Assembly: GCA_048571215.1 (NCBI GenBank)
Contig: CP182352.1
Coordinates: forward strand, 928,001-992,000
DNA: 64,000 nt
DNA from: Halarcobacter sp.
GTDB lineage: Bacteria; Campylobacterota; Campylobacteria; Campylobacterales; Arcobacteraceae
Direction: 5' to 3'
Below are positions 14,366 to 43,587 of the stretch, piece after piece; position 1 is the first letter of the stretch, and each line of letters begins with the position of its first letter. The notes under the pieces are model-generated. The model searched no databases and was not told the DNA's origin. It worked only from the letters and a program-made list of their open reading frames with translations. Both the position numbers and the translations under genes were made by a program.

Positions 14366-14432
14366 ATAAGTTCAATTAGTTATAGAGTTGTAATCTTTAG
14401 TTAATATTCTTTTTGATACACTTTTTCTAAAT

Positions 14433-14572
14433 TTATTTCTCAGGGCAAGGTGAAATTCCTTACTGGTGGTAACTATACTTAATAGAAGTCCACGAGCGCT
14501 TTATTTTATAAGGGTCAGCAGATTTGGTGTAAATCCAAAACCAACCGTAAAGTCGGGATGGAAGAGAAAATA
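14433..14572 (+). ncRNA. FMN riboswitch (RFN element)
   Basis: CTCAGGGCAAGGTGAAATTCCTTACTGGTGGT...CAGCAGATTTGGTG...AGTCGGGATGGAAGAG directly upstream of ribB. Confidence 0.95.
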
Positions 14573-14661
14573 ATATGTCTTTTTATTGTTAGATGATAAG
14601 GATAATATATTCTATTAGCCCTGATTCAATAAGTTTACTTAAAAACAAAGGTATAACTAAA

Positions 14662-27808: not shown

Positions 27809-28481
27809 AGAGGAAGTAGAACTTCTAAAAGATGAAGAAAATTTTGAAATCTTAGGTGATGAAAAATATTTAAATCATCCTGATATGGAGGCTAGACTCT
27901 ATTGGGCTTTTTGTAGACCCAATGGTTCAAGACAGGAGCAAATAGCAGATAGTGAACCTCTTGTATCTATAATGGCATTTAATCACTCAAAATTAAACCC
28001 TTTAAAAAGGTTTGAGTTACTACATAAAGATGTTATAGAAAAAGAAAATTTACGAGTAAAAATTAGAAATAGAACAAGAATGCTTTTTAGAAGTTTAATT
28101 GATGATGACTTTACTGAGTTAAATCAAGTACTAGATTTAGTTCCTGTATTTCTACCCGTAGCTATAGACCAACTAAAAAATGGAAGAAAATGGAATGACA
28201 TAAAAGCTTGTGAGATAGAAGCTACAAAATTCTTAAATCGAGCTAGTGAGTTTATAGATGAAGATTTTAAAACAGCATTATATATAAAGTTAGCAGATTT
28301 TGAAGAGATGGATAATAGTGAACTAAAAGAGCTTTTAGAAAAAACTATTGAAAAAAAAGATTCTATTCATAGGATAATTTTAGATTATTACAAAGAAAAG
28401 AGTATGGAGTGGATTGAGGATAGTGATTTACATATTTTGCAGAAAAAAGGGTTGGAGAAATTGGTAGCTAAGTTGGGTTAG
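27780..28481 (+). CDS. Hypothetical protein (start uncertain; ORF track starts 27747)
   Basis: Long ORF continuing the operon; AAGGT before TTG at 27780. Confidence 0.7.
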   Translation: MEELFNLTYKEEVELLKDEENFEILGDEKYLNHPDMEARLYWAFCRPNGSRQEQIADSEPLVSIMAFNHSKLNPLKRFELLHKDVIEKENLRVKIRNRTRMLFRSLIDDDFTELNQVLDLVPVFLPVAIDQLKNGRKWNDIKACEIEATKFLNRASEFIDEDFKTALYIKLADFEEMDNSELKELLEKTIEKKDSIHRIILDYYKEKSMEWIEDSDLHILQKKGLEKLVAKLG

Positions 28482-28513
28482 TCAAGTTTTAGAGTGTTTT
28501 GGTGGGGTGGTAG

Positions 28514-28577
28514 TTATAACGTTGAGTTCTGCGGGAGCCGCGCTTTTTGCGGCTTCCGTAGAAACGATTTGTTAACT
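28514..28577 (-). other. attC site 1
   Basis: Minus strand AGTTAAC-AAATCG...GAAGCCGC AAAAA GCGCGGCTCC...TCAAC-GTTATAA, just after the ORF stop. Confidence 0.85.
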
Positions 28578-28580
28578 TAA

Positions 28581-28952
28581 TTATTTTTCTTTTATAAAGT
28601 CCCTAATGGCCTTTTCAAAAGCTTTTAATATCTTCGGACGTTGCTTGTTGCTTACCAATCCTTTAGGTAATTTTTCAAACCACCTTTGCATTTCGCCATG
28701 GTCTCCACCGTATTTCCACAATTCACTTTCTGGTATCTTGGTGCTCGGCTGAATTTTTCGGTCAAAGTGCTCTTTGCAAGCTAGTAATTGTTCAACGCAA
28801 TGAAATTCAAATGTGAAACCGCATTCTTTGACAAAATAAACATCGTAGGGGTCAATTATTTTGTCTCTGCCTTCTGGCGGATTAATTCCTTCACCCCACA
28901 TTTTATTTTTGTGTTTTATCTCGTCATATTTTTCAATCCAATGCTTTGACAT
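28581..28952 (-). CDS. Cassette-borne hypothetical protein
   Basis: ORF bounded by GTTAACT (29002-28996) and complementary AGTTAAC in attC 1. Confidence 0.75.
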   Translation of the reverse strand: MSKHWIEKYDEIKHKNKMWGEGINPPEGRDKIIDPYDVYFVKECGFTFEFHCVEQLLACKEHFDRKIQPSTKIPESELWKYGGDHGEMQRWFEKLPKGLVSNKQRPKILKAFEKAIRDFIKEK

Positions 28953-28995
28953 TCATTTTCCAATTTTTTGGTTTAGTTGTTCATTCAGTTATTAA

Positions 28996-29035
28996 AGTTA
29001 ACTACTTATTGTAATACATTATATATAAATAATGT
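28996..29035 (-). other. attI-like leader copy 1
   Basis: Minus TATAATGTATTACAATAAGTA-GTTAACT; homologous to 35104 and 38916. Confidence 0.55.
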
Positions 29036-29256
29036 ATAAATTCACATAATAATATAACACTTTTAATGTTAAGATATTAAATTAACTAAAATCCCTTAAA
29101 TAAGGCAATTTCAATAAAATATTCTATAATATATTTTAATAAGTGATGTTTTTTATCATTTTTTTATATATTTGATTTAGTTTTTAATGTTAGATTATCA
29201 CGGTATATCCTTAATATCTTAACATTTTGTATGACTATTGGATGAAAATCTTAATA

Positions 29257-30287
29257 GTTTAACAAAATGATAAATATATTATATTGTGATTGGCTAAAAC
29301 TATTATCGAAATATTTGAATGTAAATAAACTTTTACTGTACGTCTTGGCTTTCTCGACTTTTTTTTGTGAAAAAAAAAGTAGCAAAAAAATCATCCCGCA
29401 GATTTCGAAGGCGGAAGCTCCCCTCTCTTATTATTCATCCCTTTTGAGTGACTAAAAACTTACTAAAACGTGAGTTTGTCACGTTTCTTTACGCTTCAAA
29501 CAGTTTAGTCACTTGTTTTCAAAAGAGATAAATAAACACTCGGCTTCTCAAATGCGGGAAGATGGGAAACTGACCTTTGCATTTTTTGGTACCATTTTTT
29601 TTGAATTGGTGTAATACTTAATTTATACAAAGAAAGTTTGCAGCTAGTGTATTTAGTCCAGACTTTGTTGAAGCCGGAAGTTTTCTAATTATTTTCGGAG
29701 AAGACCGAGGACCGTTCAACTGGATAAAAGGTACTAGATGTACCTTTTAGGAAGGCGTTCCGCAGGTCAGAAGATAATTAGAAAGCTGTAGGGAACTTTA
29801 GCTTCAACAACCGTCTGGTTGCTTTTTGCCATACTTTTTACAATTAAAAAGTATGAAAGCGGAGAACTTTGTTCTTCAAGACAATTGCATACAATAAAAA
29901 CTATTATCAAAATATTTGAGTGTAAATAAACTTTTACTGTACGTCTTAGCTTTCTCGACTTTCTTTTGTGAAAAAGAAAGTAGCAAAGAAACCATCCTGC
30001 GGGTTTCGAAGGCGGAAGCTCCCCGAGCTTTTCATTCATCCCTTTTGTGTGCCTAAAAACTTGCTCTTGTGCTTGCACTCTCTGTGAGAAAACGTTCTCC
30101 CAGAACGTTTCTTTACGCTTCAAACAGTTTAGTCACTTGTTTTCAAAAGAGATAAATAAACACTCGGCTTCTCAAATGCGGGAGAGTGGGATATTGACCT
30201 TTACATTTTTTGATACCATTTTGTTTAAGTTGCTGTTATACTCAACAATTATTATAAAAGTGGAGATTCATTTTCTGGGGGTGTCAC
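29257..30287. repeat. Structured repeat block 1 (units A-B-A plus GGGGTGTCAC end)
   Basis: About 1 kb direct-repeat homology to 35350-36367; nested hairpins; A approx 29296-29620 and 29897-30245, B approx 29633-29880. Confidence 0.9.
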
Positions 30288-30765
30288 TTATTTTTGTTGA
30301 AAGTAGATTCCTAATATTTTCAAAATCATTTTTAGATTTAAATGTAGCTTTAGCAATTGAAGATTTTCCGTTTGTATGGTGTATATTTAGAAATATCCCA
30401 TTACCAGCTTTGAATTCCTCTATCTTGCTAATTTGTGAAAAAGGCAACTCTATATGCTTAACCCCAGACCAAGAAAACTTTGGAACTACTATAGATTGCT
30501 CGTTGACAATAATCTTGCGTTTACCCTGAAGTAATGCAAATATCAGGAAGAAACCTAAAAGTACAAAAGCGGCACTAATAAGAAATAATACCCCATAAGC
30601 AACACTAGATATTTCTGGTGATAACCTAATTGATTTAAATAAAACCAAAACTGTATTGCCAGCTACGGCTTTAAGGAAAAAATGTTTTGCCGCTAACCCA
30701 AAGAAAATAATTACTATGGGAGGAACCCATAACATTTTTTTTAACTCAAATACTTGTTGGCTCAT
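30268..30765 (-). CDS. Cassette-borne hypothetical membrane protein lacking its attC
   Basis: Two TM, RBS AGGAG; last residues DTPRK come from the repeat-block end. Confidence 0.7.
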   Translation of the reverse strand: MSQQVFELKKMLWVPPIVIIFFGLAAKHFFLKAVAGNTVLVLFKSIRLSPEISSVAYGVLFLISAAFVLLGFFLIFALLQGKRKIIVNEQSIVVPKFSWSGVKHIELPFSQISKIEEFKAGNGIFLNIHHTNGKSSIAKATFKSKNDFENIRNLLSTKISDTPRK

Positions 30766-30779
30766 TTGAAACTCCTTTT

Positions 30780-30850
30780 AGCTAATGTTTAAAATGAGCA
30801 ATCAGTAACCCTTGCGTGGGTTACTAATTGGCTCCTCTGATTTGTTAAAT
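30780..30850 (-). other. attC site 2 (R' core reads ATTAGCT)
   Basis: Plus AGCTAAT-GTTTAAAATGAG-CAATCAGTAACCC...GGGTTACTAATTG-GCTCCTCTGATTT-GTTAAAT. Confidence 0.8.
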
Positions 30851-30854
30851 TTCT

Positions 30855-31130
30855 TCATAAATCATCGACCTCGACTTTTCCAAATTCTCCAGTGAGTCTT
30901 TCCAGTAATAGACCCAGAACTTCAAAGTACTCACCTGCTCGATGTGTACATAGTCCATATTCCTCTACTGCTAATTCGAATCTCATTGTTTTTCTATTGT
31001 ACTCACGAATTACCCAAAGTTGTCCATCGTAATCATATTTGCATGAAGTACAAAATTCAGCGAGGAATGCTTTAATTTCATTTGTATTGTTGTGTTCGAA
31101 TTTGAAGCTTTGTGCAAGACCCAATGTCAA
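30855..31130 (-). CDS. Cassette-borne hypothetical protein
   Basis: ORF filling the interval between attC 3 and attC 2. Confidence 0.65.
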   Translation of the reverse strand: MTLGLAQSFKFEHNNTNEIKAFLAEFCTSCKYDYDGQLWVIREYNRKTMRFELAVEEYGLCTHRAGEYFEVLGLLLERLTGEFGKVEVDDL

Positions 31131-31140
31131 TCCTTTTGTA

Positions 31141-31212
31141 GTTTAACGTTTGAAATGAGCAATCAAAAAGCCGCTCGCAGGTTTTTGATTGGTCTCCTCT
31201 AATTTGTTAGAC
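31141..31212 (-). other. attC site 3
   Basis: Plus GTTTAAC...CAATCAAAAA...TTTTTGATTG...GTTAGAC; ORF stop TAA lies in R''. Confidence 0.88.
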
Positions 31213-31767
31213 ATTGGGATTTTGATCATTTCTAAACTCTCTCACTATTTGTGGAGAACGAAGTTTCCAGATTATCCATCCGAAAAGTGCAGTAAATATT
31301 AAGACGAAAATAACTGAAGCGATTGACATCACGGTCATCATCGTCTCCATTTGAGACTGAAACTCTACGGGAGTATCAGGGGGCAATGGAAAGTCTTGAA
31401 TCATTGCTTCTTGGAAAACGAGACTTGCCAGATTTCAAATAATCCCAAGTGCCAGTAGTGCAATAAATGCAATTCGGGCCCAGTTTTTTCGTTTGAGGAG
31501 ACCAATTGATGCAATGAGAACAAATAAAGAAACCAGAAATACTGCTAGGAAAATTAAATCAAAATGCTTGAACATAAACTGGGCTATTTCAGGAACTGGG
31601 ACTGAACTGTTACTTTCATTCATTAGTTCTTCCACTGGCAGTTTAGGCATAATAAATTGAAACATGATATTTTGCAAGGCAGTAATAAATGTTCCAAATC
31701 CTGCAAATACGATTCCTATCCATGCTAATGCTGTAATAAATGTTGATTTTGAATTTTCTGCTGCCAA
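31207..31767 (-). pseudogene. Cassette membrane protein split by an in-frame TGA
   Basis: 31435..31767 and 31207..31404 are in one frame: ALGII*NLASLVFQEAMIQD. Confidence 0.75.
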
Positions 31768-31780
31768 CTTATTTTCCTTT

Positions 31781-32370
31781 GTCTAACGTTTAAAATGAGC
31801 CGATGAATTGCCCGCAGGGTAATTTATTAGCTCCTCTGAGATTGTGAAAGAACTCAGTCTCAATTTATATAAATATTCTACATAAAAACACTTAAAAATA
31901 ATCATCCTAAAAATACTAAAATGTTATAATATATTATATTTTAATAGATGAGAATAATATAGCAAGAGCAATTGATTCTTATGTTGAGATATTAAATATT
32001 CATAAGCTAAATATAAAAACTAAAAAATCATTAATAACAGATGGTCAAGCTGCATTTCATCCAAAACTACTATTAAAAATATATATTTATGGATATTTAA
32101 ATCTTGTAAAGCCAAGAGGTGCTTTAGCATCACTCTCTTTGAAAAAAAGTTATGTATAGCAATAAAAAACAAAGATTTAACTCAAATTACAAAAGATATA
32201 GAGAAAAATATATCTTAGTGTTTGGACTTTATCTGGTTTATTATTTAGAATTTATTTTTTATTTTCAAATTTTTGTCAAAAAGTTAAGATATTTGGAAAA
32301 CTAATTGAGATTTTTACTGTAAATTTAGTTTATTTGGAACTAAATTCACAGTTTGACTGATTTGTTATCT
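31781..32370 (-). other. attC site 4, interrupted by IS remnant
   Basis: GTCTAAC...CTCCT-CTGA [insert] CTGA-TTTGTTATCT; removing the insert and one CTGA restores the family consensus. Confidence 0.8.
31840..32356 (+). mobile_element. IS1182-family remnant (internally deleted)
   Basis: Fragment DENNIARAIDSYVE...GQAAFHPKLLLKIYIYGYLN (31944-32102); imperfect IR ends GATTGTGAA / TTCACAGTTTGA; 4-bp CTGA duplication. Confidence 0.75.
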
Positions 32371-33196
32371 ATTTTTTTGTATTTAAATTCAATTCCTTAA
32401 CGGCAGTTATATAAGGTTCAAATTTTGTTCCATATTTTAGTGTAACTATATATCTAGGTTTGATTACTTTTTTATTATTATAATTTCTTATTGGTCGTAA
32501 TGACTTAAGAAAGTTACTATATTCAAGGGGAACATAAATCTCTTTTATACTTAAACCAGAAATATAACCATCAATTCCTTCGTCTGTATGTCTAACATTG
32601 ATTAGTCCTTTTGCAATAATATATTTTGATTTATCTTGATATTTAGATCTTAATATTTTTGGATTAATATTTGCATCAATTGCAAAAAGTCTAGAACGGT
32701 TAAATTGCTCATCTTTCAAGTCTTTTATTGCATGTTTTAACTTTTGTTTATCTTTTTTTTCTGTAGAGTTTAGTTCTTGTAATTCTTTGACCTTATTTTT
32801 TGCTAATGCTAATGAATCTTGATATGACTTACCGTCATATTCTAGAACAATAAACACTTCTTTTTCAATACTTCTAAAAAAATTAAAACCATTATTTTTT
32901 TTAAAGTTATTTTCAATATCAAAACCAAGACTTTTTAGTTTTTGCGTTGTAAGCCATAGTGTCTGGTTATTATAAGAAAAGTTATTTTGAATTCTCCAAT
33001 TAAGTTTTAATGAAATGGCATTATTTTCATTTCTATTTCGATATGGAAGTTTTAACTCTCGTTCCGTAAGAGATACTTCTGAACTAGGTAAGTCTGCTCT
33101 ATTAATAAAAACTCCATATAAAATTACAATATTTGAAATGATAATTAAAGCAAAAGCTAAAATAAATAACTTATTTGAATTAAAAAAATATTTCAT
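32369..33196 (-). CDS. DUF4824-like protein (cassette gene 2)
   Basis: LTERELKLP, WL...KL..LGF, SRLFAIDA, YG..FEP. Confidence 0.7.
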   Translation of the reverse strand: MKYFFNSNKLFILAFALIIISNIVILYGVFINRADLPSSEVSLTERELKLPYRNRNENNAISLKLNWRIQNNFSYNNQTLWLTTQKLKSLGFDIENNFKKNNGFNFFRSIEKEVFIVLEYDGKSYQDSLALAKNKVKELQELNSTEKKDKQKLKHAIKDLKDEQFNRSRLFAIDANINPKILRSKYQDKSKYIIAKGLINVRHTDEGIDGYISGLSIKEIYVPLEYSNFLKSLRPIRNYNNKKVIKPRYIVTLKYGTKFEPYITAVKELNLNTKK

Positions 33197-34269
33197 GAGA
33201 ATACCTTTTCATCATTTTCAATAACAGATAATCGTAATTTTTTAAATACAAATAATACAATTAGTGCCGATAAGCCTATTAAGAAAAAGAAAATGTATTT
33301 TGGCATCCAATCCCACCACCAATCAAAAAACTTTGTGTATAAAAATATAGTAAAAAATATATTCCCAGTATTTACTACATCTGATAAGTTCTTTTTTATT
33401 CCAAACCAAATCATCAAAGCACTCATACTAAAACCAATCATTTGATACATTGCTTCAATATAATCTATTTCAAAATTTAAATAACTTATCATTCCCCAAT
33501 TCGATAGAATCAATACAGGAAGAAAAAATATAATCATCCCAAAAACTCTATAAATAACATCAAAACCATCATAACGATGATGTTTAATAAATGAAATAAA
33601 AAACAATAAAATGGCAACAGGTAAAAAATGTTCAGGTCTTTCTCCAAACCCAATCCAGTACATACCACTCCATGTTCCAATTTTTGCCGATAGAAAAGCA
33701 GAAAAGCTTAAAATTGCAAATGCTAGCAGTAACCTCGCATTAATAGCGTACGCTAATAATAATGCAAATATTGACCATACCAACAAAGCATTTGCAGATG
33801 GAGTAATATTAAATATTTGTCCAAGCATGGAAATATTAAGTACAAAACAAACGAAACTTAGTAATCCAAATATTTTTGAAAAATAGCTTGTTTTCTCCTT
33901 TTTAGAAAGATACATAGCTACTATCAAAGTAATAATTGGTGTTATTACCAATATTATTACTTGAATTGTAGTAGATAATACACCCCAAAATTGATAAAAA
34001 AGAAAAAATACACTTGCAGATAACCCAAGAGCACCTAAGAACGATGCTATTTTCATCCCTAAACTTAATTGTTTTTTGTGATGATTTGAATCGATATCAA
34101 ATGTTGATATAAGCTTAGTAATAAGGCTTTTGTGATAATTCTGTATATTGGTATATTGTGTTTTTTCAAGAGTAACAATATTTTCTTTTTCAAGTATTTG
34201 TAGTTCTTTTTGAAATTGATTGATTTGATCAACTCTTTGTTGTGCTTCAATTTTAGATTTTATATTCAT
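33193..34269 (-). CDS. DUF2157-like membrane protein (cassette gene 1)
   Basis: AQQRVDQI, LGQIFNI, FFDWWWDWMPKY; overlaps next gene by 4 nt. Confidence 0.75.
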   Translation of the reverse strand: MNIKSKIEAQQRVDQINQFQKELQILEKENIVTLEKTQYTNIQNYHKSLITKLISTFDIDSNHHKKQLSLGMKIASFLGALGLSASVFFLFYQFWGVLSTTIQVIILVITPIITLIVAMYLSKKEKTSYFSKIFGLLSFVCFVLNISMLGQIFNITPSANALLVWSIFALLLAYAINARLLLAFAILSFSAFLSAKIGTWSGMYWIGFGERPEHFLPVAILLFFISFIKHHRYDGFDVIYRVFGMIIFFLPVLILSNWGMISYLNFEIDYIEAMYQMIGFSMSALMIWFGIKKNLSDVVNTGNIFFTIFLYTKFFDWWWDWMPKYIFFFLIGLSALIVLFVFKKLRLSVIENDEKVFS

Positions 34270-34300
34270 TATTTATTGTAACTCCTGAGAATATTTATTT

Positions 34301-34372
34301 AGATAATGTTTGAAATGAGTAATCAAAAAGCCGCCCGCGGGTTTTTGATTGGTCTCCTCTGATTTATTATAA
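34301..34372 (-). other. attC site 5 (both cores mutated)
   Basis: Nearly identical to attC 3 but ends read AGATAAT and ATTATAA on plus. Confidence 0.8.
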
Positions 34373-34612
34373 GTCTGGTGTGTGTTGCAAGAAATTGATT
34401 TCATTTGCTTTCTCAATATCTCCAATTCTTAGGTAGTGAATCAGCTTTTTCAATTCATTGTCTTGGAATATTCTATAGTCAATGTCCTTTGCACGAATAT
34501 CTTCATCAGAAAAATAATGGGGGAGATATGCAAATACACCATCCAATGAGTTGTCATAAAGCTCTTCAACAGTACATTCAGTGTGTTTTACACTCTCTTG
34601 ATGGTTTAACAT
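34367..34612 (-). CDS. Cassette-borne hypothetical protein (5' end uncertain)
   Basis: ORF between attC 6 and attC 5, stop in R''. Confidence 0.6.
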   Translation of the reverse strand: MLNHQESVKHTECTVEELYDNSLDGVFAYLPHYFSDEDIRAKDIDYRIFQDNELKKLIHYLRIGDIEKANEINFLQHTPDL

Positions 34613-34666
34613 TCTTTCCAGTAAATCAGCTAGTTGAAGATATTGGATAGCGAACCCCTTTTTGAC

Positions 34667-34735
34667 TTATAACGTTTGAATTGAGGAATATTTGAGCCGC
34701 AGGGTCAAATATTCCTCTCCAATGATTTGTTAGCC
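34667..34735 (-). other. attC site 6
   Basis: Plus TTATAAC...GAGGAATATTTGA gccgcaggg TCAAATATTCCTC...GTTAGCC. Confidence 0.88.
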
Positions 34736-35097
34736 ACACCAGTATATATTTCAGAGGGAGGGTAACCTTCTGACTCTGCATAAAACTTATTTCCATTCTT
34801 CTCAATCACCAAATAACCTCCTCCCCCATGAGCCATCATACTTTTTGAGGCTTGATCCCATGTCAGTTCTTCCATTCGACCTGTCAAATCGAAAAAAATA
34901 CAATCATCTTGATCCACAAAGCCGATTTTTTCATATGCAAACTGTTTGGGAAAAACATCTGAAATACTATGACAAATTTTTCTCATCAATTTTTCGGGCT
35001 TTTTTAACGCATCAACAACACATCGTGATTGGTAGTCTTTGAGGACAAAATTTGAAGCAAATCGTTCAATACTTTGTTGTGTAATCATATAATCCAC
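34705..35097 (-). CDS. Cassette-borne hypothetical protein reading into attC
   Basis: Starts after GTTAGCC (35110-35104); C-terminal NKSLERNI is attC-encoded. Confidence 0.7.
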   Translation of the reverse strand: MDYMITQQSIERFASNFVLKDYQSRCVVDALKKPEKLMRKICHSISDVFPKQFAYEKIGFVDQDDCIFFDLTGRMEELTWDQASKSMMAHGGGGYLVIEKNGNKFYAESEGYPPSEIYTGVANKSLERNI

Positions 35098-35103
35098 CTC
35101 ATA

Positions 35104-35150
35104 GGCTAACTATTTATTGAATATACATTATATAAATAAAGTACTTAAAT
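35104..35150 (-). other. attI-like leader copy 2
   Basis: Minus TATAATGTATATTCAATAAATA-GTTAGCC. Confidence 0.55.
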
Positions 35151-35349
35151 ATGCTACTTTATTATATATTTATCAAGAAAACTTATTTTATGCATGTTTA
35201 TAGAAATAATATTATGTAATATAATATTTATTCTATATATCTTTATTATAAGTTATAATCTTTATGTATATTTTATGTCGATATTTAGAACTTTAATATA
35301 TATAATGTATGTTAAAAGTAAGAATTTAACTTTAAATAACATTTTGATT

Positions 35350-36367
35350 GTTTAACAAAATGATAAATATATTATGTGTATTTGGATAATACTATTATCA
35401 AAATATTTGAGTGTAAATAAACTTTTACTGTACCTCTTGGCTTTGTCGACTTTCTTTTGTGAAAAAGAAAGTAGCAAAGAAACCATCCCACAGGTTTCGA
35501 AGCCGAAGGTTCCCTCGCTTATTATTTCACTTTTCTATTTTTTAAAACTCGCTAAAACGTAAGTTAGTTACGTTTTTGACACTCAGACAGTTAAAAAACT
35601 TTTGCCTGCAAGCAGGATTACATCCGAAAAGCAAAATAAACACTCGGCTTCTCAAATGCGGGAAGGTGGGATAATGACCTTTTCATTTTTTGGTACCATT
35701 TTGTTTGGATTTGTGTAATACTCAAATAGTATGAGAAAGTTCAAGGCTAGGGTATTTTAGTCCAGACTTTGTTGAAGCTGGAAGTTTTTTAATTATTTTC
35801 GGAGAAGACCGAGGACCGTTCAACTGGATAAAAGGTACTGAATGTACCTTTTAGGAAGGCGTTCCGCAGGTCAGAAGATAATTATAAAACTGGAGGGAAC
35901 TTTAGCTTCAACAACCGTCTGGCTGCTTTTTGTCTTACTTTTTACAACTAAAAAGTGAGAAAGCGGAGAGCTTTGCTCTACAAGAGGGTGTATACAATTA
36001 AAACTATTTTCAAAATATTTGAGTGTGAATAAACTTTTACTGTACGTCTTAACTTTACCGACTTTCTTTTGTGAAAAAGAAAGTAGCAAAGAAACCATCC
36101 CACAGGTTTCAAAGCCGAAGGTTCCCTCGCTTATTATTCATCCCTTTTGAGTGCCTAAAAACTTGCTAAAACGTGAGTTAGTCACGTTTTTTTACGCTTC
36201 AAACAGTTTATTCACTTGTTTTCAAAAGAGACAAATAAACACTCGGCTTCTCAAATGCGGAAAGGTAGGAAATTGACCTTTGCATTTTTTGATACCATTT
36301 TATTTGAATTGGTGTGATACTCAACAATTATTATAAAAGTGGAGATTCATTCTCTGGGGGGTGTCAC
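35350..36367. repeat. Structured repeat block 2 (A-B-A plus GGGGTGTCAC end)
   Basis: Homologous to 29257-30287, including a 26-bp identical start GTTTAACAAAATGATAAATATATTAT. Confidence 0.9.
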
Positions 36368-36663
36368 CATTAAATTGCAATGGATATTTCTATATTTGAG
36401 CTATGCTTTTTGTGAGTTTTCAAATTGCTTTGCATCATCTATTGAACGCTTTGATATGTTTTATAAATAATTTTATATAGTCTATTCATCTCTTTTTTTG
36501 CAAATGTAGATGTATTTTCACTGCACATAGCAACAACCGTATTATTTATTTGACCTTCTTTATGAATACGATCATTGTAAATTTTCTCATATTTATTTTT
36601 TGTTTCAGTAAATAAAATAAAAGGCATTAATGCAATAAGTAATAGTAAATTTGTGACCTTCAT
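36368..36663 (-). pseudogene. LprI/DUF1311-like cassette gene, frameshifted and truncated
   Basis: AKKEMNRLYK, then in another frame FENSQKA*LKYRNIHC (SQxAWxxYR..C motif). Confidence 0.65.
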
Positions 36664-36682
36664 AGATTACTCCTTTGTATCA

Positions 36683-36734
36683 ATATAACGCCTGCCTCAG
36701 CCGCTGAAGATCGGATTAGAGTCTCTTGTTAGCC
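36683..36734 (-). other. attC site 7 (short/degenerate)
   Basis: Minus GGCTAACAAG...CAGGC-GTTATAT, 52 bp. Confidence 0.55.
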
Positions 36735-37107
36735 ATTTTCTAGTTATTATAGGCAACCATGTAGCCCCTATAGCACACAGCTGAAAATAGGTTAACCGGT
36801 ACGGGTGAGCCCAGCCACCCGAGTAGCCAACATCAAAAGCCAGCCACACAACAAATGTGGAACTTGAAGCCAAAGCCACAATCAGCACCCTTTCTGGAAA
36901 TCTCAGTACAGCAAAACCCTCTAATACCGCCAATACTCCGAACCACGCTGTAAAAAAGCCTAAGGTTAGCCCCCAGGAATACCCACCTCTGTATTCTCTA
37001 CCTATAGCTTCCGCCACGAAGTGGCCGACTCCATATATCGCGGTCAGAAGAAGCACCCTGATTATTGGCCGTAACAAAAGCAGATAAACTATGCGCTTTG
37101 TCATCAC
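36697..37107 (-). CDS. Cassette-borne membrane protein, GC-richer than host
   Basis: About 4 TM segments, between attC 8 and attC 7. Confidence 0.7.
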
Positions 37108-37143
37108 GATTAACCTTTGAAATAAGCCGATAAATTGTTATTC
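37108..37143 (-). other. attC site 8 (internally deleted)
   Basis: GATTAAC-CTTTGAAATAAGCCGATAAATT-GTTATTC matches both ends of the attC 4 type with the centre missing. Confidence 0.6.
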
Positions 37144-37144
37144 A

Positions 37145-37387
37145 TTAGAAGTCAGAGAGTACAGAGATTATCACGTGTGGCTCAGAACTTTCAGATTTTC
37201 CAAATTTTAAGGAAGATTGACCATCTGATGTACGAACTTTTGTAGCCTCGGAAATACTTATATCATTAATTTCAAGAATACGAAACATATGTCCTTTAGC
37301 TTGGAAAATCTCATCTTCTGTATAGCAAAGTACATCAGAATTTGATGGTAAAGACTGAAGCTTAGTTAATAAATCGGAAACTTTCAT
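37145..37387 (-). CDS. Cassette-borne hypothetical protein
   Basis: RBS AAGGA, between attC 9 and attC 8. Confidence 0.65.
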   Translation of the reverse strand: MKVSDLLTKLQSLPSNSDVLCYTEDEIFQAKGHMFRILEINDISISEATKVRTSDGQSSLKFGKSESSEPHVIISVLSDF

Positions 37388-37411
37388 GTAAATCCTTCTT
37401 ATAATTTTAGT

Positions 37412-37480
37412 GTATAACGTCTAAGTTGAGAAATATTTGAGCCACAGAATCAAATATTTCTCCCCCATGATTTGTTATAT
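37412..37480 (-). other. attC site 9
   Basis: Plus GTATAAC...GAGAAATATTTGA gccacagaa TCAAATATTTCTC...GTTATAT; same family as attC 6. Confidence 0.85.
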
Positions 37481-38892
37481 AGTTTAATCATTATGATACT
37501 TTTACCTATCAGTCCTAATAATGATATAACAATTGAACTTAGCATTAAATAGCCGATATCTGGTACAAACATTAAAAATCCGCTAAATGTTAAATTATAC
37601 AACTTGGGTATAATAAAAAATAGTGAGATGATAATTGAAATATCAAATATAAATGATACTATTGTTCTATACTTTTTGACATCTTTATGCTTTTGAATAA
37701 ACTGTTTCATTAAAAATAATTGAACTATTAATAAACTGATAAAAAATACATATGCAGATATAGAGATAATATCTATAGTGGTATCTTTTAGTTCTTTATT
37801 TCTAATTATATCAATAATACCACCTGCTAGAGTGTTTAACTCATTACTGCCTAATGTATATGAAGTAGCATTTGTAAGCATAATAAGACCTAGTTTTTCT
37901 TCTGGAAATATAATCATTGAAGCTGTATATCCAGGGGCTGTTCCTAAATGATTTAAATAAAGTTTTTCACTAGTATCCACAAACCATCCAAAGCCATAAT
38001 GGATTTTACCCTTGACTATCGTAGCACTTGGTGTTTGTATTTGTTTAATAATAGAAGATGAAAATATCTGTTCTTTCTTATATTTTCCTTTATTTAACTG
38101 TGCAATTAAATAGTTGCTCATATCTTCAACATTTGAAATAATATATCCAGCAGGAAGTAAAACTTTACTAAATGGAAAATCACTTTTTATAGCTTGACCA
38201 AACCAAAGTCTATGTCCTTGTGCTATATTTTTTTTGTCAATATTCTCTAAAGAGGCATAACTATTTTTCATATCAAGTTTATTAAATATATTTTCTTTTA
38301 TATATTGATTATAAGAAAGCCCAGTTACTTTTTCTATAACTAAACCTAAAATTTGATAATTTATATTTGAATAATAAAAAGTGGTTGATGGCTTTGAAAT
38401 AAGTGAGACATCTTTTAACGCCCGAATAGTTTTTTCTAAAGCAAAATTACTACTATCCCAATCATCAAAATTTTTCAATCCATCATAAGTAGAAAATCCG
38501 CTGGTTTGGTTTAACAGTGTTCTAATAGTTATATTGTTGACATCTTTTTCATCTTTTATTTTAAACCAAGAAAGATACTTATTTATTGAATCATCCAAAT
38601 TAATTTTCCCATCTTCCACTAATTGCATAATTGCTAAGGCTATAAATGACTTGGTTAATGAGCCGATATAAAATAAAGATTTTGTATTTATATCTTTATC
38701 TTTAGAATAACTATTTTTATAAATTAAACTATTATCCTTTATAACCCCTATTGATATAGTAGGAATATCTGCTTGATTTTGCATTTTTTTAACATAGTTA
38801 TCAATTTTATTAAAAGTTTGAGTATCTATATTTTTAGCATTTAATTCAAAACAAAGAAATATAATAAAAATTAGTATAAATTTTATTTGCAC
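37450..38892 (-). CDS. Serine hydrolase (beta-lactamase class C/CubicO fold) with C-terminal TM helices, cassette-borne
   Basis: GSLTK, LLNQTSG, YSN, HLG; ends NKSWGRNI inside attC 9. Confidence 0.85.
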   Translation of the reverse strand: MQIKFILIFIIFLCFELNAKNIDTQTFNKIDNYVKKMQNQADIPTISIGVIKDNSLIYKNSYSKDKDINTKSLFYIGSLTKSFIALAIMQLVEDGKINLDDSINKYLSWFKIKDEKDVNNITIRTLLNQTSGFSTYDGLKNFDDWDSSNFALEKTIRALKDVSLISKPSTTFYYSNINYQILGLVIEKVTGLSYNQYIKENIFNKLDMKNSYASLENIDKKNIAQGHRLWFGQAIKSDFPFSKVLLPAGYIISNVEDMSNYLIAQLNKGKYKKEQIFSSSIIKQIQTPSATIVKGKIHYGFGWFVDTSEKLYLNHLGTAPGYTASMIIFPEEKLGLIMLTNATSYTLGSNELNTLAGGIIDIIRNKELKDTTIDIISISAYVFFISLLIVQLFLMKQFIQKHKDVKKYRTIVSFIFDISIIISLFFIIPKLYNLTFSGFLMFVPDIGYLMLSSIVISLLGLIGKSIIMIKLYNKSWGRNI

Positions 38893-38915
38893 TTATTGCA
38901 CCTCATATATTTTAT

Positions 38916-38962
38916 ATATAACTATTAATTAAATATACATTATATTAATTTATTACTTAAAT
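38916..38962 (-). other. attI-like leader copy 3
   Basis: Minus TATAATGTATATTTAATTAATA-GTTATAT. Confidence 0.55.
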
Positions 38963-39220
38963 AGCCTGATAACATAACATAATTAAACTAAGCCTTCAAA
39001 TAGGCTATTTGTATAAAAAAATATTCTAAAATGATATATCTTTTAAGTAAATTATAATGTTATATTATCATCTATATGTATAGTTTTTATCTAAATAACA
39101 GTAATAAACATGCAATTTGCATGTTATTTGGAATAAATCGTGATAATACTACATTTTAAGAAAATATAAAATGAGTGAAAAATTATTTGATATAATGAGA
39201 GATAAATTCTAAATATTCAC

Positions 39221-39673
39221 TTTTTTGCCTGCAAGCAGGATTACATATTGAAAAAAGTAAAACAAAAAGCAACCCGCAGGTTTCGAAGATGAAACTAGCC
39301 TCACTTATTATTTATTGCTTCTCAAATGCGGGAAGGTAGTATAAAGACCTTTGCATTTTTTGGTACCATTTTATTTAAGTTGGTGTTATGTTAAATTTAC
39401 ATCAGGAAGTTTGTGGCTAGTGTATTTTAGTCCAGACTTTGTTGAAGCCGAGTGCTTTGCTTTTTAAAGCGGAAAAAGCCGAAACTGTTTGAAGAAAGAA
39501 AAGTGACTAACTCACTTTTTCGAGGAGTTTTGCAGGCTAGCTTTAAAAAGTGAAGTGGGAGGGAACTTTAGCTTTAACAACGCGTCTGGTTGCTTTTTGT
39601 CTTACTTTTTACAACTAAAAAGTGAGAAAGCGGAGAACTTTGTTCTACAAGAGAGTGCATACAATTAAAACTA
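39221..39673. repeat. Structured repeat block 3 (partial A plus B)
   Basis: CCCGCAGGTTTCGAAG...GCTTCTCAAATGCGGG, then TAGTCCAGACTTTGTTGAAGCC...GTCTGG. Confidence 0.85.
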
Positions 39674-39717
39674 TCTATAAATCTATTTAACTATTTACTT
39701 AAATCATATTTTTCATA

Positions 39718-41103: not shown

Positions 41104-41161
41104 AGTTTGATATCAAACTAAATATTAAAGGAATTATAGTTTGATATCAAACTAAAGTCAA
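41104..41161 (-). promoter_or_regulatory. Sigma70 promoter with two perfect palindromic operators
   Basis: AGTTTGATATCAAACT at 41104-41119 and 41138-41153; minus TTGACT-17 bp-TATAAT. Confidence 0.8.
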
Positions 41162-41257
41162 GAGTTTTTGAAAAGAATTGTGAAATTTTTAATATTATTG
41201 ATTTTTATTTTTGTATGAATTGATTGTTGTGCTAGATTCTATTTGTTGTTATGTCAT

Positions 41258-41345: not shown

Positions 41346-41583
41346 TTCAGGACCTTTGGATTTTTTATACCATTTTATTCGAATTGGTGTAATACTTAAA
41401 AAGCATTCTAAAAGTTTGAGGCTAGGGTATTTAGTCCAGACTTTGTTGAAGCTGGAACTTTTTCTTTTTTTATGGTGAAAAGTGAGGACGTGTTTGAGCG
41501 TAAAAAAGAGTGACTAACTCACTCTTTTAGCGAGTTGCCACCTTAAAAGAATATAAAAATTCCATATAAAATTTATAATAAAA

Positions 41584-42555
41584 TTAAATTTTTTCTGAAT
41601 CATATGGTACATTATTTTTATATACGGCATGAGCAATAACTAATAGTTTTCTCATAATTGCTACTTGTATAACTGTAGTATGTTTTCCATTTTCTTTTAG
41701 TCTATCATAAAACTTTCTTAATCTTTCGTTATTTCTTATTGATGTCATTGCTGGCATAAACAAAGTACCTCTACATATTTTTGAACCTGCTTTTGATATT
41801 TTTGTTTTTCCATTAACTGATATACCTGAACTTTTTTCTATTGGATCTAATCCTGCTAAAGATACTATCTGTTTTTGATTAGCATTTTTATATTGAATAA
41901 AATGTATAAGTAATACAATTGAAGATATTTCTCCTATACCATCAATTGTTTGCAAATTATTAAATGATTGTTGAAGTTTCTCATCTTTTTTTATGATTGA
42001 TTTTATTTTTTTGATAATTTTTTGTTCTTGTTTTTTTAAAAATTGATTTTGTAATTCAAACTCTTTTATCAAATAGCTTTTATCTTTTTTTGCTTTTAAA
42101 GCAGCTATATGGTTTTTAGTTATAACTTGTTGTTTAATAATTAATTTATATCCAGAAATAAGCTCTTTTAATTCTTCTTCTATGGTATCTACAATAGGTA
42201 TTTTAATATCTTTATCTTTAGCTGTAACAATCATTTTAGATAAAAGCTGTGCATCTTTTATATCATTTTTATTTCTATATCCCATTACTTTTGCAAAGCT
42301 AGCACTTTTTTTAGGATTTACTATAAAGCTTTTTATATTTTTGTTTGCACAAAACTGTTTTAAAAGAAATGAATAATTAGCTGTTGGTTCATAAACAAAT
42401 ACTAATTTATCTATCTCTTTTTTATAAAGCTTTTTTAGTTTAGAGTACAAACTTTTTATTCCATTTAAACTATTATCAATAATTAAATCTAAATCATTTA
42501 TTGGAATATAAACATTAATTGTTGACTTACTTACATCTAATCCGATAGAATACAT
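41584..42555 (-). CDS. IS110 family DEDD recombinase/transposase
   Basis: IGLDVSK, YEPT, KND..DA, GIG, AGLDP...SSG, MRKL. Confidence 0.95.
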   Translation of the reverse strand: MYSIGLDVSKSTINVYIPINDLDLIIDNSLNGIKSLYSKLKKLYKKEIDKLVFVYEPTANYSFLLKQFCANKNIKSFIVNPKKSASFAKVMGYRNKNDIKDAQLLSKMIVTAKDKDIKIPIVDTIEEELKELISGYKLIIKQQVITKNHIAALKAKKDKSYLIKEFELQNQFLKKQEQKIIKKIKSIIKKDEKLQQSFNNLQTIDGIGEISSIVLLIHFIQYKNANQKQIVSLAGLDPIEKSSGISVNGKTKISKAGSKICRGTLFMPAMTSIRNNERLRKFYDRLKENGKHTTVIQVAIMRKLLVIAHAVYKNNVPYDSEKI

Positions 42556-42614
42556 TTCTAGAACCTTTATTTTAGGATAAAGAGTTCGTTAGGGTAGGAT
42601 TTCTCCTACCTGAT

Positions 42615-42805
42615 AATTGTTATACAAACTTTAGACTTATAAAATACGAACTAGTTATAAAACTGTTCTTGTTGCCACTCAAATTTAAAGTATAACTATC
42701 AAACTCGCCATCAAGCTAATTATAAATTATTTTTTATAATTGCTTTAGTTCCGCAACGATATATTATCTTTCAAACTCTTTGGAAATATATTAACTATAT
42801 TCCCT
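42615..42805 (-). ncRNA. Predicted IS110 bridge RNA
   Basis: 5' hairpin, then two internal loops whose segments match the reconstructed target and donor junctions. Confidence 0.8.
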
Positions 42806-43587
42806 TAAATGTATTATATAAGTCCCGCAACGCAATAAAAAAATAGAAAGTGGAAGGTAGCTTTGCCTTCAACAACGCGTCTGGTGGCTTTTGTTTTACT
42901 TTTACCACTAAAAGTAAAGAAAGCGAAGAACTTGTTCTTCAAGACAACTGCATACAATAAAAACTATTTTCAAAGTATTTGAATGTAGTTAAACTTTAAC
43001 TGTACCTCTTGGTTTTTTCGACTTTTTTTATGAAAAAAAAGTAGCAAAAAATCACCCGCGGGGTTTCGAAGGCGGAAGCTCCCCTCGCTTATTATTTATT
43101 ATTTCTGTTTTGTCTTGTGCTTGCACTCTCTTTGAGAAAACTCACATAAAAATATGCTCCCAGCATATTTGTTCTGTTCAAACAGTTACAAAACTTCTCC
43201 GAAACAATAAATAAACACTCGGCTTCTCAAATGCGGGAAGGTGGGATAATGATCTTTGCATTTTTTGATACCATTACATTCAAAATTACTGTGATACTCA
43301 ATATCTATTTTAAAAGTTTGTGGCTAGTGTATTTAGTCCAGACTTTGTTGAAGCCGGAAGGTTTTTAATTATTTTCGGAAAAGCCTGAGAATGTTTGAGG
43401 AGAGAAAAGTGACTAGATGTCACTTTTTCGACGAGTTTCGCAAGGCAGAAAATAATTAAGAACCTGTAGGGGACTTTAGCTTTAACAACCGTCTGGTGGC
43501 TTTTCTCAAAGAGAGTGTAAACACAGGTTTTACTTTTACCACTAAAAGTAAAGGAAGCGAAGAACTTTGTTCTTCAAGATAAAAAAC

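Follow-up and report, generated by a model that had tools for sequence, protein, structure and literature searches.

The 64,000-nucleotide (nt) stretch analysed in the present study, called the window below, comes from Halarcobacter sp. (assembly GCA_048571215.1; genome G000) and corresponds to C1:928001-992000 of contig CP182352.1. It carries three integron cassette arrays, all read on the minus strand, each of them headed by a leader that resembles the integron docking site attI, and beyond each leader stands a block of repeats. The genome as a whole holds 21 such orphan platforms and one complete integron with an intact integrase (IntI), the latter 60 kb from the arrays. Coordinates are window positions unless prefixed C1 (chromosome). 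The genome is a single closed contig of 3.61 Mb with 28.5% G+C and zero N, and it was compared with 25 genomes within the genus and 184 genomes across the family (22 genera), which are referred to by G numbers.

Arrays, leaders and attC sites in the window

In each array the first cassette begins at a crossover G, located at 29002, 35110 and 38922 on the minus strand, where the first-pass annotation had placed it, with TATAATGTAT..AATAA(A/G)TAG ahead of the G and TTRRRY after it. Platform A (29000..29295, minus strand) consists of the attI core TATAATGTATTACAATAAGTAG, followed by TT, and a stretch of about 290 nt with homology to the intI-attI region native to G093. Platform B (35108..35387, minus strand) has the core TATAATGTATATTCAATAAATAG, followed by TT, and a leader which in the alignment is near-identical over about 230 nt to the intI-attI regions native to G087 and G095. 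Platform C (38920..39170, minus strand) has the core TATAATGTATATTTAATTAATAG, again followed by TT, and its leader. The AT-rich stretch and the repeat block that were expected past each leader are both present: after 260-300 nt of AT-rich DNA the blocks occupy 29296-30290, 35388-36400 and 39210-39681, and direct repeats confirmed the similarity of the leaders as well as the three blocks. A TATAAT box lies 13 nt upstream of the crossover G and is kept in every copy.

Array A contains only one cassette, A1 (28578..29001, minus strand), with an open reading frame (ORF) of 123 amino acids (aa) without a Pfam family; the cassette starts with TTAACT, the complement of its own R'' box. Its attC site (28514..28577, minus strand; R'' AGTTAAC, R' GTTATAA; z -4.53; nhmmer E 9e-8) terminates the array against core DNA, and R' and the flank of this attC are kept in the relative G100. 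Array B (30268..35107, minus strand) has ORFs of 130, 81, 358+275 (DUF2157+DUF4824), 110/65 (interrupted), 91 and 165 aa, and attC sites on the minus strand at 34667-34735, 34304-34369, 32296-32378, 31776-31848, 31144-31213 and 30783-30850. Array C (36401..38921, minus strand) has ORFs of 480 aa (PF00144, serine-hydrolase/beta-lactamase fold), 80, 136 (GC-richer) and 74 aa, with a good attC site at 37411-37480 and a doubtful one at 36680-36736, both on the minus strand. The earlier sizes of 1, 6 and 4 cassettes are a reasonable count; the final cassettes of arrays B and C lack an attC and adjoin the next repeat block. Apart from the DUF2157+DUF4824 pair and the PF00144 protein, the cassette ORFs mostly have no Pfam family, a content typical for a chromosomal integron. 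Under the IntegronFinder definition of a CALIN (two or more attC sites clustered with no intI near), array B is one, with six attC sites and the nearest intI 60 kb off; array A is a single site, and array C combines one good attC with one doubtful one.

The nine attC sites proposed by the first-pass annotation were folded as bottom-strand single-stranded DNA and compared with shuffled sequences. Seven of them form strong hairpins (z -3.2 to -5.65, with 0/200 shuffles equal), while the site at 31776-31848 is weak (z -1.43, 15/200 shuffles equal) and lacks a proper R'', and the candidate at 36680-36736 does not fold (z +1.55) and has the R''/R' boxes only. A possible tenth site at 37108-37152 gave no fold in the same test. 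The good attC sites of the window are mutually homologous and their stems covary (AATATTTGA/TCAAATATT, AATCAAAAA/TTTTTGATT and AATAAATTA/TAATTTATT); compensatory stem changes were found in four of six alifold pairs. The complementarity noted earlier between the leading GTTRRRY of a cassette and the R'' of its own attC is exact in the four pairs named (GTTAACT/AGTTAAC, GTTAGCC/GGCTAAC, GTTATAT/ATATAAC and GTTAGAC/GTCTAAC), and in three further window cassettes six of the seven positions agree by eye. Terminator-like sites numbered 14 against 4.8 expected and were mostly attC hairpins.

Three other approaches to attC sites were set aside. An earlier strict scan returned four sites only; a generic scan for motif and folding gave 206 candidates genome-wide, which was too noisy, and was applied inside the arrays only; and a covariance model (R1) from RNAalifold held 6 pairs only and was left unused.

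Within array B, segment 31849-32296 is antisense to the cassettes and by eye resembles the N-terminal part of a DUF772-type transposase. With similar segments at C1:1937021-1937541, 631584-632355, 900562-900752, 1471485-1471644 and 2825941-2826088 it is present in six arrays, including the one close to intI, with 80-99% identity and a constant orientation to the array.

It is scarcely credible that repeated modules were mis-joined during assembly. Short-read assembly has difficulty with repeats of about 610 nt present in dozens of copies, and contigs from public runs do break inside them, but the genome assembly is one closed 3.6-Mb contig without N, and other genomes of the genus show this architecture as well. 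Moreover, public-run contigs match with 0 differences across attI_A (28200-29283), across the distal end of block 1 (30243-31811) and over 36330-38968, where they bridge both attI_C and the block 2 distal end; attI_B is bridged by more than 31 letters solely in a contig from a relative in another study (34684-35150). In the public runs the repeat units have 10-30 times the depth of the cassettes, which fits a repeat in many copies. None of the listed public runs with this sequence was of RNA. Joints at attC/attI in these runs were considered as excision products and rejected, their sides being just 21-27 letters long and lying inside mutually similar attC sites.

Orphan attI platforms and the resident integron

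The sole intact integron integrase gene of the genome lies 60 kb left of the arrays at C1:895245-896189 (minus strand). Its product, with the N-terminus MGKKLLDIMKDKIRF, matches TIGR02249 with 398 bits (cut-off 265) over profile positions 1-313 of 315, is full length without stops, and shows RHRY-type motifs by eye. The native intI-attI intergenic region ends with TATATAATGTATGTTCAATAAATA/GTTGTTCG, where the slash marks the crossover and GTTGTTC follows, and the complement GTTGTTC/GAACAAC holds for the first native cassette. This cassette is gene-less and consists essentially of one very stable attC of 162 nt (dG about -40 kcal/mol; C1:896496-896682). It is repeated with 99% identity 1.9 kb further on (C1:898385-898569) and recurs only within the native array.

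A leader pattern, TATAATGTATNNNNAATNANTAGTT, was searched for with at most one mismatch in the 25 genomes of the genus, and was present in 20 of them; the reversed pattern, used as a control, matched once in all 25. In G087, G092, G093, G095, G100, G103 and G105 the pattern is found 236-283 nt upstream of a divergent intI; in G090, where intI is truncated at its N-terminus, the distance is 742 nt. With G000 included, it adjoins intI in nine of the ten intI-bearing genomes of the genus, the exception being G108, so that a search for the leader motif beside intI, as the first-pass annotation had suggested, had a positive outcome. Together with about 190-230 nt of homology between the window leaders and the intI-adjacent regions of G000 and its relatives, this identifies the attI-like leaders as a genuine attI with its promoter region.

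A palindrome is found in the middle of the leader, for example at C1:896340-896365 (AATATTGCAAATTGCAATATT) and around 35215-35240 of the window. Leaders of several types, native as well as orphan, keep it at this position, and the former intI promoter may have had it as its operator.

For the genome-wide search a hidden Markov model (HMM) was made from the last 63 nt of the leader. At E<=0.002 it gave 22 attI-like sites in G000, 14 of which were training sequences; one is the native site and 21 are orphans. The orphan platforms are dispersed over 2.4 Mb and belong to at least four sequence types. The capture module proposed for the window is thus a recurrent one, given these 21 sites and the occurrence of the motif in 20 of the 25 genomes. 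A second HMM, based on the seven window attC sites (E<1e-3), also gave 22 matches, 15 of them outside the window. Each of the 22 attC sites has an attI-like site on its own strand no more than 4.3 kb upstream, and therefore no attI-less attC cluster was found in this genome.

The upstream ends of the leaders indicate where these platforms come from. Directly beyond leader C there is an intI remnant (39171..39209, plus strand) of the first 13 or so codons (MSEKLFDIMRDKF), which is divergent from the cassettes, is fused to repeat-unit sequence and is 86% identical over 36 nt to the 5' end of the native intI (BLAST). The orphan at C1:1803470 matches the native region of the same genome and also continues into the first 13 or so intI codons. 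An intI stub with an identical junction to the unit sequence (..AAAAAAGTGAATATTTA, then the unit) was found at leader C, at C1:1803470 and at C1:1717925. For types A and B the junction of repeat unit and leader falls at about the position of the intI start codon. The orphan at C1:1940120 has no unit and is joined to the end of an unrelated gene about 15 nt ahead of the start codon. By these junctions the platforms are integron heads that were stripped of intI. The identical unit/intI junctions in several copies further argue that the platforms multiplied after the loss of intI.

Whether the orphan sites were used as docking sites was judged from the first cassettes. Among the 13 attI-like sites with an HMM attC within 4 kb, the first seven letters of the first cassette are the exact reverse complement of R'' in the first such attC in ten, compared with 13/156 for mismatched pairings. 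Each of the three misses has an earlier attC of another type that matches. In a wider look, 15 of the 22 attI-like sites were exact, and one more was exact apart from G>A at the crossover. Such a signature results when a cassette circle opens at its attC and is linked to the G of the leader, and the G/TT of the orphan leaders has therefore served as a crossover point.

A comparison with G100 points in the same direction. In this relative an island lies between the same core genes, whose flanks are 82-83% identical. It keeps the orphan attI_A and the flank after the attC, GTTATAAC-TACCA, and between those two crossover points it has a different cassette of about 0.9 kb with a different attC. 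The comparison shows cassette turnover at an orthologous orphan site, and it provides the case of a leader module with different cassettes in a relative that the first-pass annotation had asked about. Array C and its platform are absent in G100, where the MarR gene pair is followed by one unit and then directly by platform B; the difference is therefore bounded by unit copies. Between the two genomes array B shows 97.9% identity over 4.07 kb, far above the core flanks, which suggests a recent exchange between lineages.

These data also bear on the alternative that the platforms are dead relics, that is, stumps or copies of complete integrons whose cassettes were loaded before intI was lost and which, with recombination there at an end, now decay as CALIN-type remnants that keep their attI. 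It is in agreement with the decay seen in attC sites and cassettes of the window, with debris of the IS110 family and of other insertion sequences (IS) in and around the arrays, with the intI remnants that adjoin some leaders, and with the retention of platforms in relatives that have no intI. The exact 7/7 complementarity at ten of 13 first cassettes, by contrast, indicates little decay, and the orthologous attI_A of G100 bears a different cassette between identical crossover flanks. If the platforms multiplied after the loss of intI, as their shared junctions suggest, cassettes inserted later at orphan sites would have needed an IntI acting in trans. On balance the relic explanation is considered unlikely.

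The repeat block

Block 1 (29296..30290, minus strand) is made of one full unit of about 610 nt and a distal partial one, and its end motif TAACACCCCCAGAAAATGAATCTCCAC overlaps the end of the 165-aa ORF. Block 2 (35388..36400, minus strand) has a full unit (35388-36020), a distal partial unit and the end motif at about 36370-36400. Block 3 (39210..39681, minus strand) is a partial unit with alpha and beta parts and a gamma-derived stub. Further units, without attI, lie at 41351..43580 (minus strand), upstream of a SnoaL-MarR gene pair, and are split by an IS110-family element.

The first-pass annotation had counted the repeat block as part of the capture module, and this is not supported. The unit occurs at dozens of places in G000. 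At 17 of 23 attI-like sites examined its sub-blocks occur in constant order and orientation, starting 211-369 nt upstream; six of the 23 have no unit, the native site among them, and 5 of the 21 orphan sites lack it. The unit is a mosaic, of which alpha (query 35-260) and gamma (420-575) are found separately in other genera, and the 5' part of alpha is an inverted copy of gamma. It was detected in 62 of the 184 family genomes and in 14 of the 22 genera, and intI in 55 of the 184. There was no association between the two, since intI was present in 19/62 unit-positive and 36/122 unit-negative genomes, and in one genus 13 of 44 genomes carry the unit but none has intI.

The repeat block appears to be a complex similar to miniature inverted-repeat transposable elements (MITEs), which would have replaced intI and would now constitute dispersed homology. 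The MITE-like feature is the long inverted similarity between the 5' part of alpha and gamma. Neither a target duplication nor an empty site (one locus tested) nor a parent transposon of the unit was found. The modules of hairpin plus T-run make a role of the units as terminators or insulators plausible.

An alternative is that the block encodes one or more functional structured RNAs, made from the former intI promoter, which replaced IntI as the product of the platform and act, for instance, in regulating how cassettes are expressed or recombined. The blocks do occupy the position of intI, downstream of its promoter (Pint), and their hairpins covary across unit copies with many compensatory changes. 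Alpha folds better antisense to the cassettes (alifold -33.8 vs -22.0), and its helix cells contain 105 G-U against 10 A-C, although this count is partly circular, the structure having been predicted on that strand. In beta, gamma and delta, in contrast, neither strand is preferred or the preference is reversed (the antisense strand is not favoured in beta and gamma-delta), and no Rfam match to the unit was obtained at E<=5 on either strand, so that the block has neither a curated family nor a strand-consistent structure. In addition, the 5' part of alpha and gamma are inverted copies, sub-blocks stand alone in either orientation in other genera, the units are equally common with and without intI, and those at 41351-43580 have no attI at all. 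Such an RNA is therefore regarded as improbable.

The distal end of the block carries the motif TAACACCCC.GAG.ATGAATCTCCAC, beyond which, at more than 12 loci, the upstream DNA is unrelated. This motif abuts a truncated attC 5' half at C1:1711888 and C1:1467238, and at C1:1717848 one copy lies inside the leader of another platform. Such junctions, and the 97.9% identity of array B across species with core flanks at 82%, would fit a module that is itself a mobile element carrying attI. It would be driven by IntI, through recombination of an attI-bearing circle with attC, or by a transposase that acts on the repeat ends. The upstream junctions lie off the canonical G/TT of attC, however, the end motif also occurs alone and away from units, and no transposase is tied to the units besides the interrupting IS110 elements. 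Neither a target duplication nor an empty site supports mobility, the single tested locus being a variable hot spot: for the isolated platform at 2.745 Mb no empty site was found, and the region between the conserved flanks differs in every relative. A plasmid collection gave no match to unit plus leader. We regard movement of the module as a unit as doubtful.

The end motif in the form (T)AACACCCC.GAGGATGAATCTCCAC stands alone at C1:548517-548544, 549384-549414, 3395550-3395573 and 3396737-3396764, among others. These solitary copies often follow TTACACCCC iterons and lie upstream of paralogous divergent genes, and the motif may be an independent binding or recombination site. A miniature attC was rejected as its identity, because solitary copies have no GTT and diverge straight after CTCCACTTT.

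Several other identities were rejected for the unit and its surroundings. It is not a group II (IIC-attC) intron, since the 1.3-kb insert in four copies is an IS110-family element, no intron match was found in Rfam and the hairpin is by eye unlike domain V. An oversized attC or non-coding cassette was dismissed because the long-range stem has GTT on its 5' arm and AAC on its 3' arm, the reverse of attC. An 18-kb insertion with split attC ends (5' at C1:1711922, 3' at C1:1693700) was discarded as the halves come from different attC sites.

The window ORF 41584-42555 encodes a transposase of 323 aa, lies in the alpha part of a unit and has the domains PF01548 (DEDD) and PF02371 that define the IS110 family. 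An element of about 1.3 kb, assigned to the same family by eye and by its likeness to this ORF, is present in four copies (C1:1467501-1468805, 1704965-1706359, 2521355-2522659 and 2826474-2827774), which encode an identical transposase of 338 aa and are all inserted at about unit position 538. Insertion at a fixed unit position suggests a sequence-guided targeting of the repeats. At C1:2203001-2210000 a phage-type integrase of 366 aa and an AAA-ATPase-like ORF of 416 aa were found beside unit fragments and the distal-end motif, and this region may be an island integrated at a unit.

One integrase and many platforms

Taken together, the data favour, with a probability of roughly 70%, an explanation in which the window contains three real cassette arrays, each under an orphan platform, one IntI recombines attC sites with many attI sites, and repeats replaced intI. 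IntI made from the single intact gene would recombine the folded attC of cassette circles with any attI at G/TT, so that cassettes are proposed to be captured and exchanged at many loci, and the resident enzyme would still act in trans today. The orphan platforms would also be active as promoters, the conserved TATAAT box driving transcription of the first cassettes. Hairpin-rich, MITE-like repeats would have taken the place of intI, with the junction at its start or slightly within it. Through the homology that they disperse over the genome, these repeats probably allow segments made of unit, leader, attI and cassettes to be gained, lost and copied by homologous recombination, and they may also stop read-through between arrays. 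A broader claim, for which the chances are put slightly below even, is that the integron of the genus is a distributed one, with a single IntI and about 20 attI/promoter platforms, and with repeats that copy, move and delete platforms and may insulate the arrays.

Several observations weigh against recombination in trans at the orphan sites. Six of the 22 attI-like sites have no matching first attC. Only one of the four attI types is native to the resident IntI, whose recognition of the other types is assumed. Relatives without intI (G085, G086, G088, G094, G096, G098, G104 and G106) hold 2-7 copies of the motif, so platforms persist without service and could be relics. The window itself shows signs of decay: R' reads ATT instead of GTT in the attC sites at 30783 and 34304, the ORF at 31207-31767 is interrupted, a transposase fragment is present, and the sites at 36680 and 37108 do not fold. 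A promoter scan was uninformative in such AT-rich DNA, with 61 sites against 64 expected. The comparison with G100 is a cross-species one, and the swap at attI_A could have come by homologous recombination from a third lineage. Finally, the contigs that bridge the platforms may derive from the source sample of the genome assembly, and none of them spans a repeat block.

Cury et al. 2016 (PMC4889954) describe CALIN and SALIN as a cluster of attC sites and a single attC, respectively, without an integron integrase. In that paper attI was searched for just by exact match to classes 1-3, and integrase loss, rearrangement and insertion at secondary sites are discussed as CALIN origins. The arrays of G000 resemble CALINs thus defined in having no intI for several kb while the genome encodes IntI elsewhere. 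The definition as given there ignores attI, however, whereas every array of G000 stands under a full attI/promoter region, with about 20 heads of several types. Software that is blind to attI sites other than those of classes 1-3 will file such arrays as CALINs.

Sedentary chromosomal integrons, such as the superintegron of Vibrio cholerae, have one platform with intI, Pint and the cassette promoter Pc, attI and a long array. The arrays described here agree with them in species-specific similar attC sites, one orientation, cassettes of mostly unknown function, the G/TT crossover and the R'/R'' complement, but differ in being many and short (1-6 cassettes), each with its own attI and mostly without intI. 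A parallel for a second attI is In104 of Salmonella genomic island 1, a complex class 1 integron in which a second attI1 lies beside a groEL/intI1 fusion. There, too, the second attI adjoins a truncated intI, heads its own cassette and is served by one intact integrase; In104 is, however, a single partial duplication in a mobile resistance integron, in contrast to the genus-wide chromosomal occurrence in about 20 copies with repeats replacing intI seen here.

IS1111-attC insertion sequences and group IIC-attC introns are elements that target the attC sites of integrons. Similarities to them are the mobile or repeated DNA in the arrays, the IS110-family transposases and the two unit ends that abut truncated attC halves. 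Unlike them, the IS110-family elements found here enter repeat units and not attC, and the units have no features of group II introns. BOX, BIME and Correia-type elements are mosaic intergenic repeats or MITEs, and the units share with them a modular, hairpin-rich, non-coding and multi-copy nature, shuffled sub-modules and long inverted repeats. The units are much longer (a composite of about 610 nt), frequently stand in tandem and are regularly joined to an integron platform. A literature search covering integrons in Arcobacter, CALIN and multiple or orphan attI sites returned no account of multiplied chromosomal attI platforms; the matches dealt with attI x attI assays and with complex integrons of SGI1.

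The usual description of an integron has a single integrase with one attI, one promoter and one array, of which the first cassettes alone are expressed. The multiplicity of orphan attI sites departs from this picture of one docking site per integron. About 20 attI/promoter heads with short arrays would allow many cassettes to be expressed together and would spread capture over the chromosome, and if the integron is indeed distributed, a captured cassette would have a promoter of its own and sit first or nearly first behind it, and not deep in one long silent array. Platforms that lost intI and kept attI would also give a concrete origin for integrase-less attC clusters, in which case many CALINs of other bacteria may have unrecognised attI heads. 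The attI motif, its variants and the cognate IntI defined here make recognition in trans between attI types directly testable.

Two features lie outside the arrays. Ahead of the SnoaL-MarR gene pair, two copies of a palindrome (TAGTTTGATATCAAACT) occur at 41120-41200 and are probably a MarR operator. An FMN riboswitch was identified at 14432-14573 (Rfam RF00050, 121.9 bits), and the early part of the window is therefore ordinary core genome.

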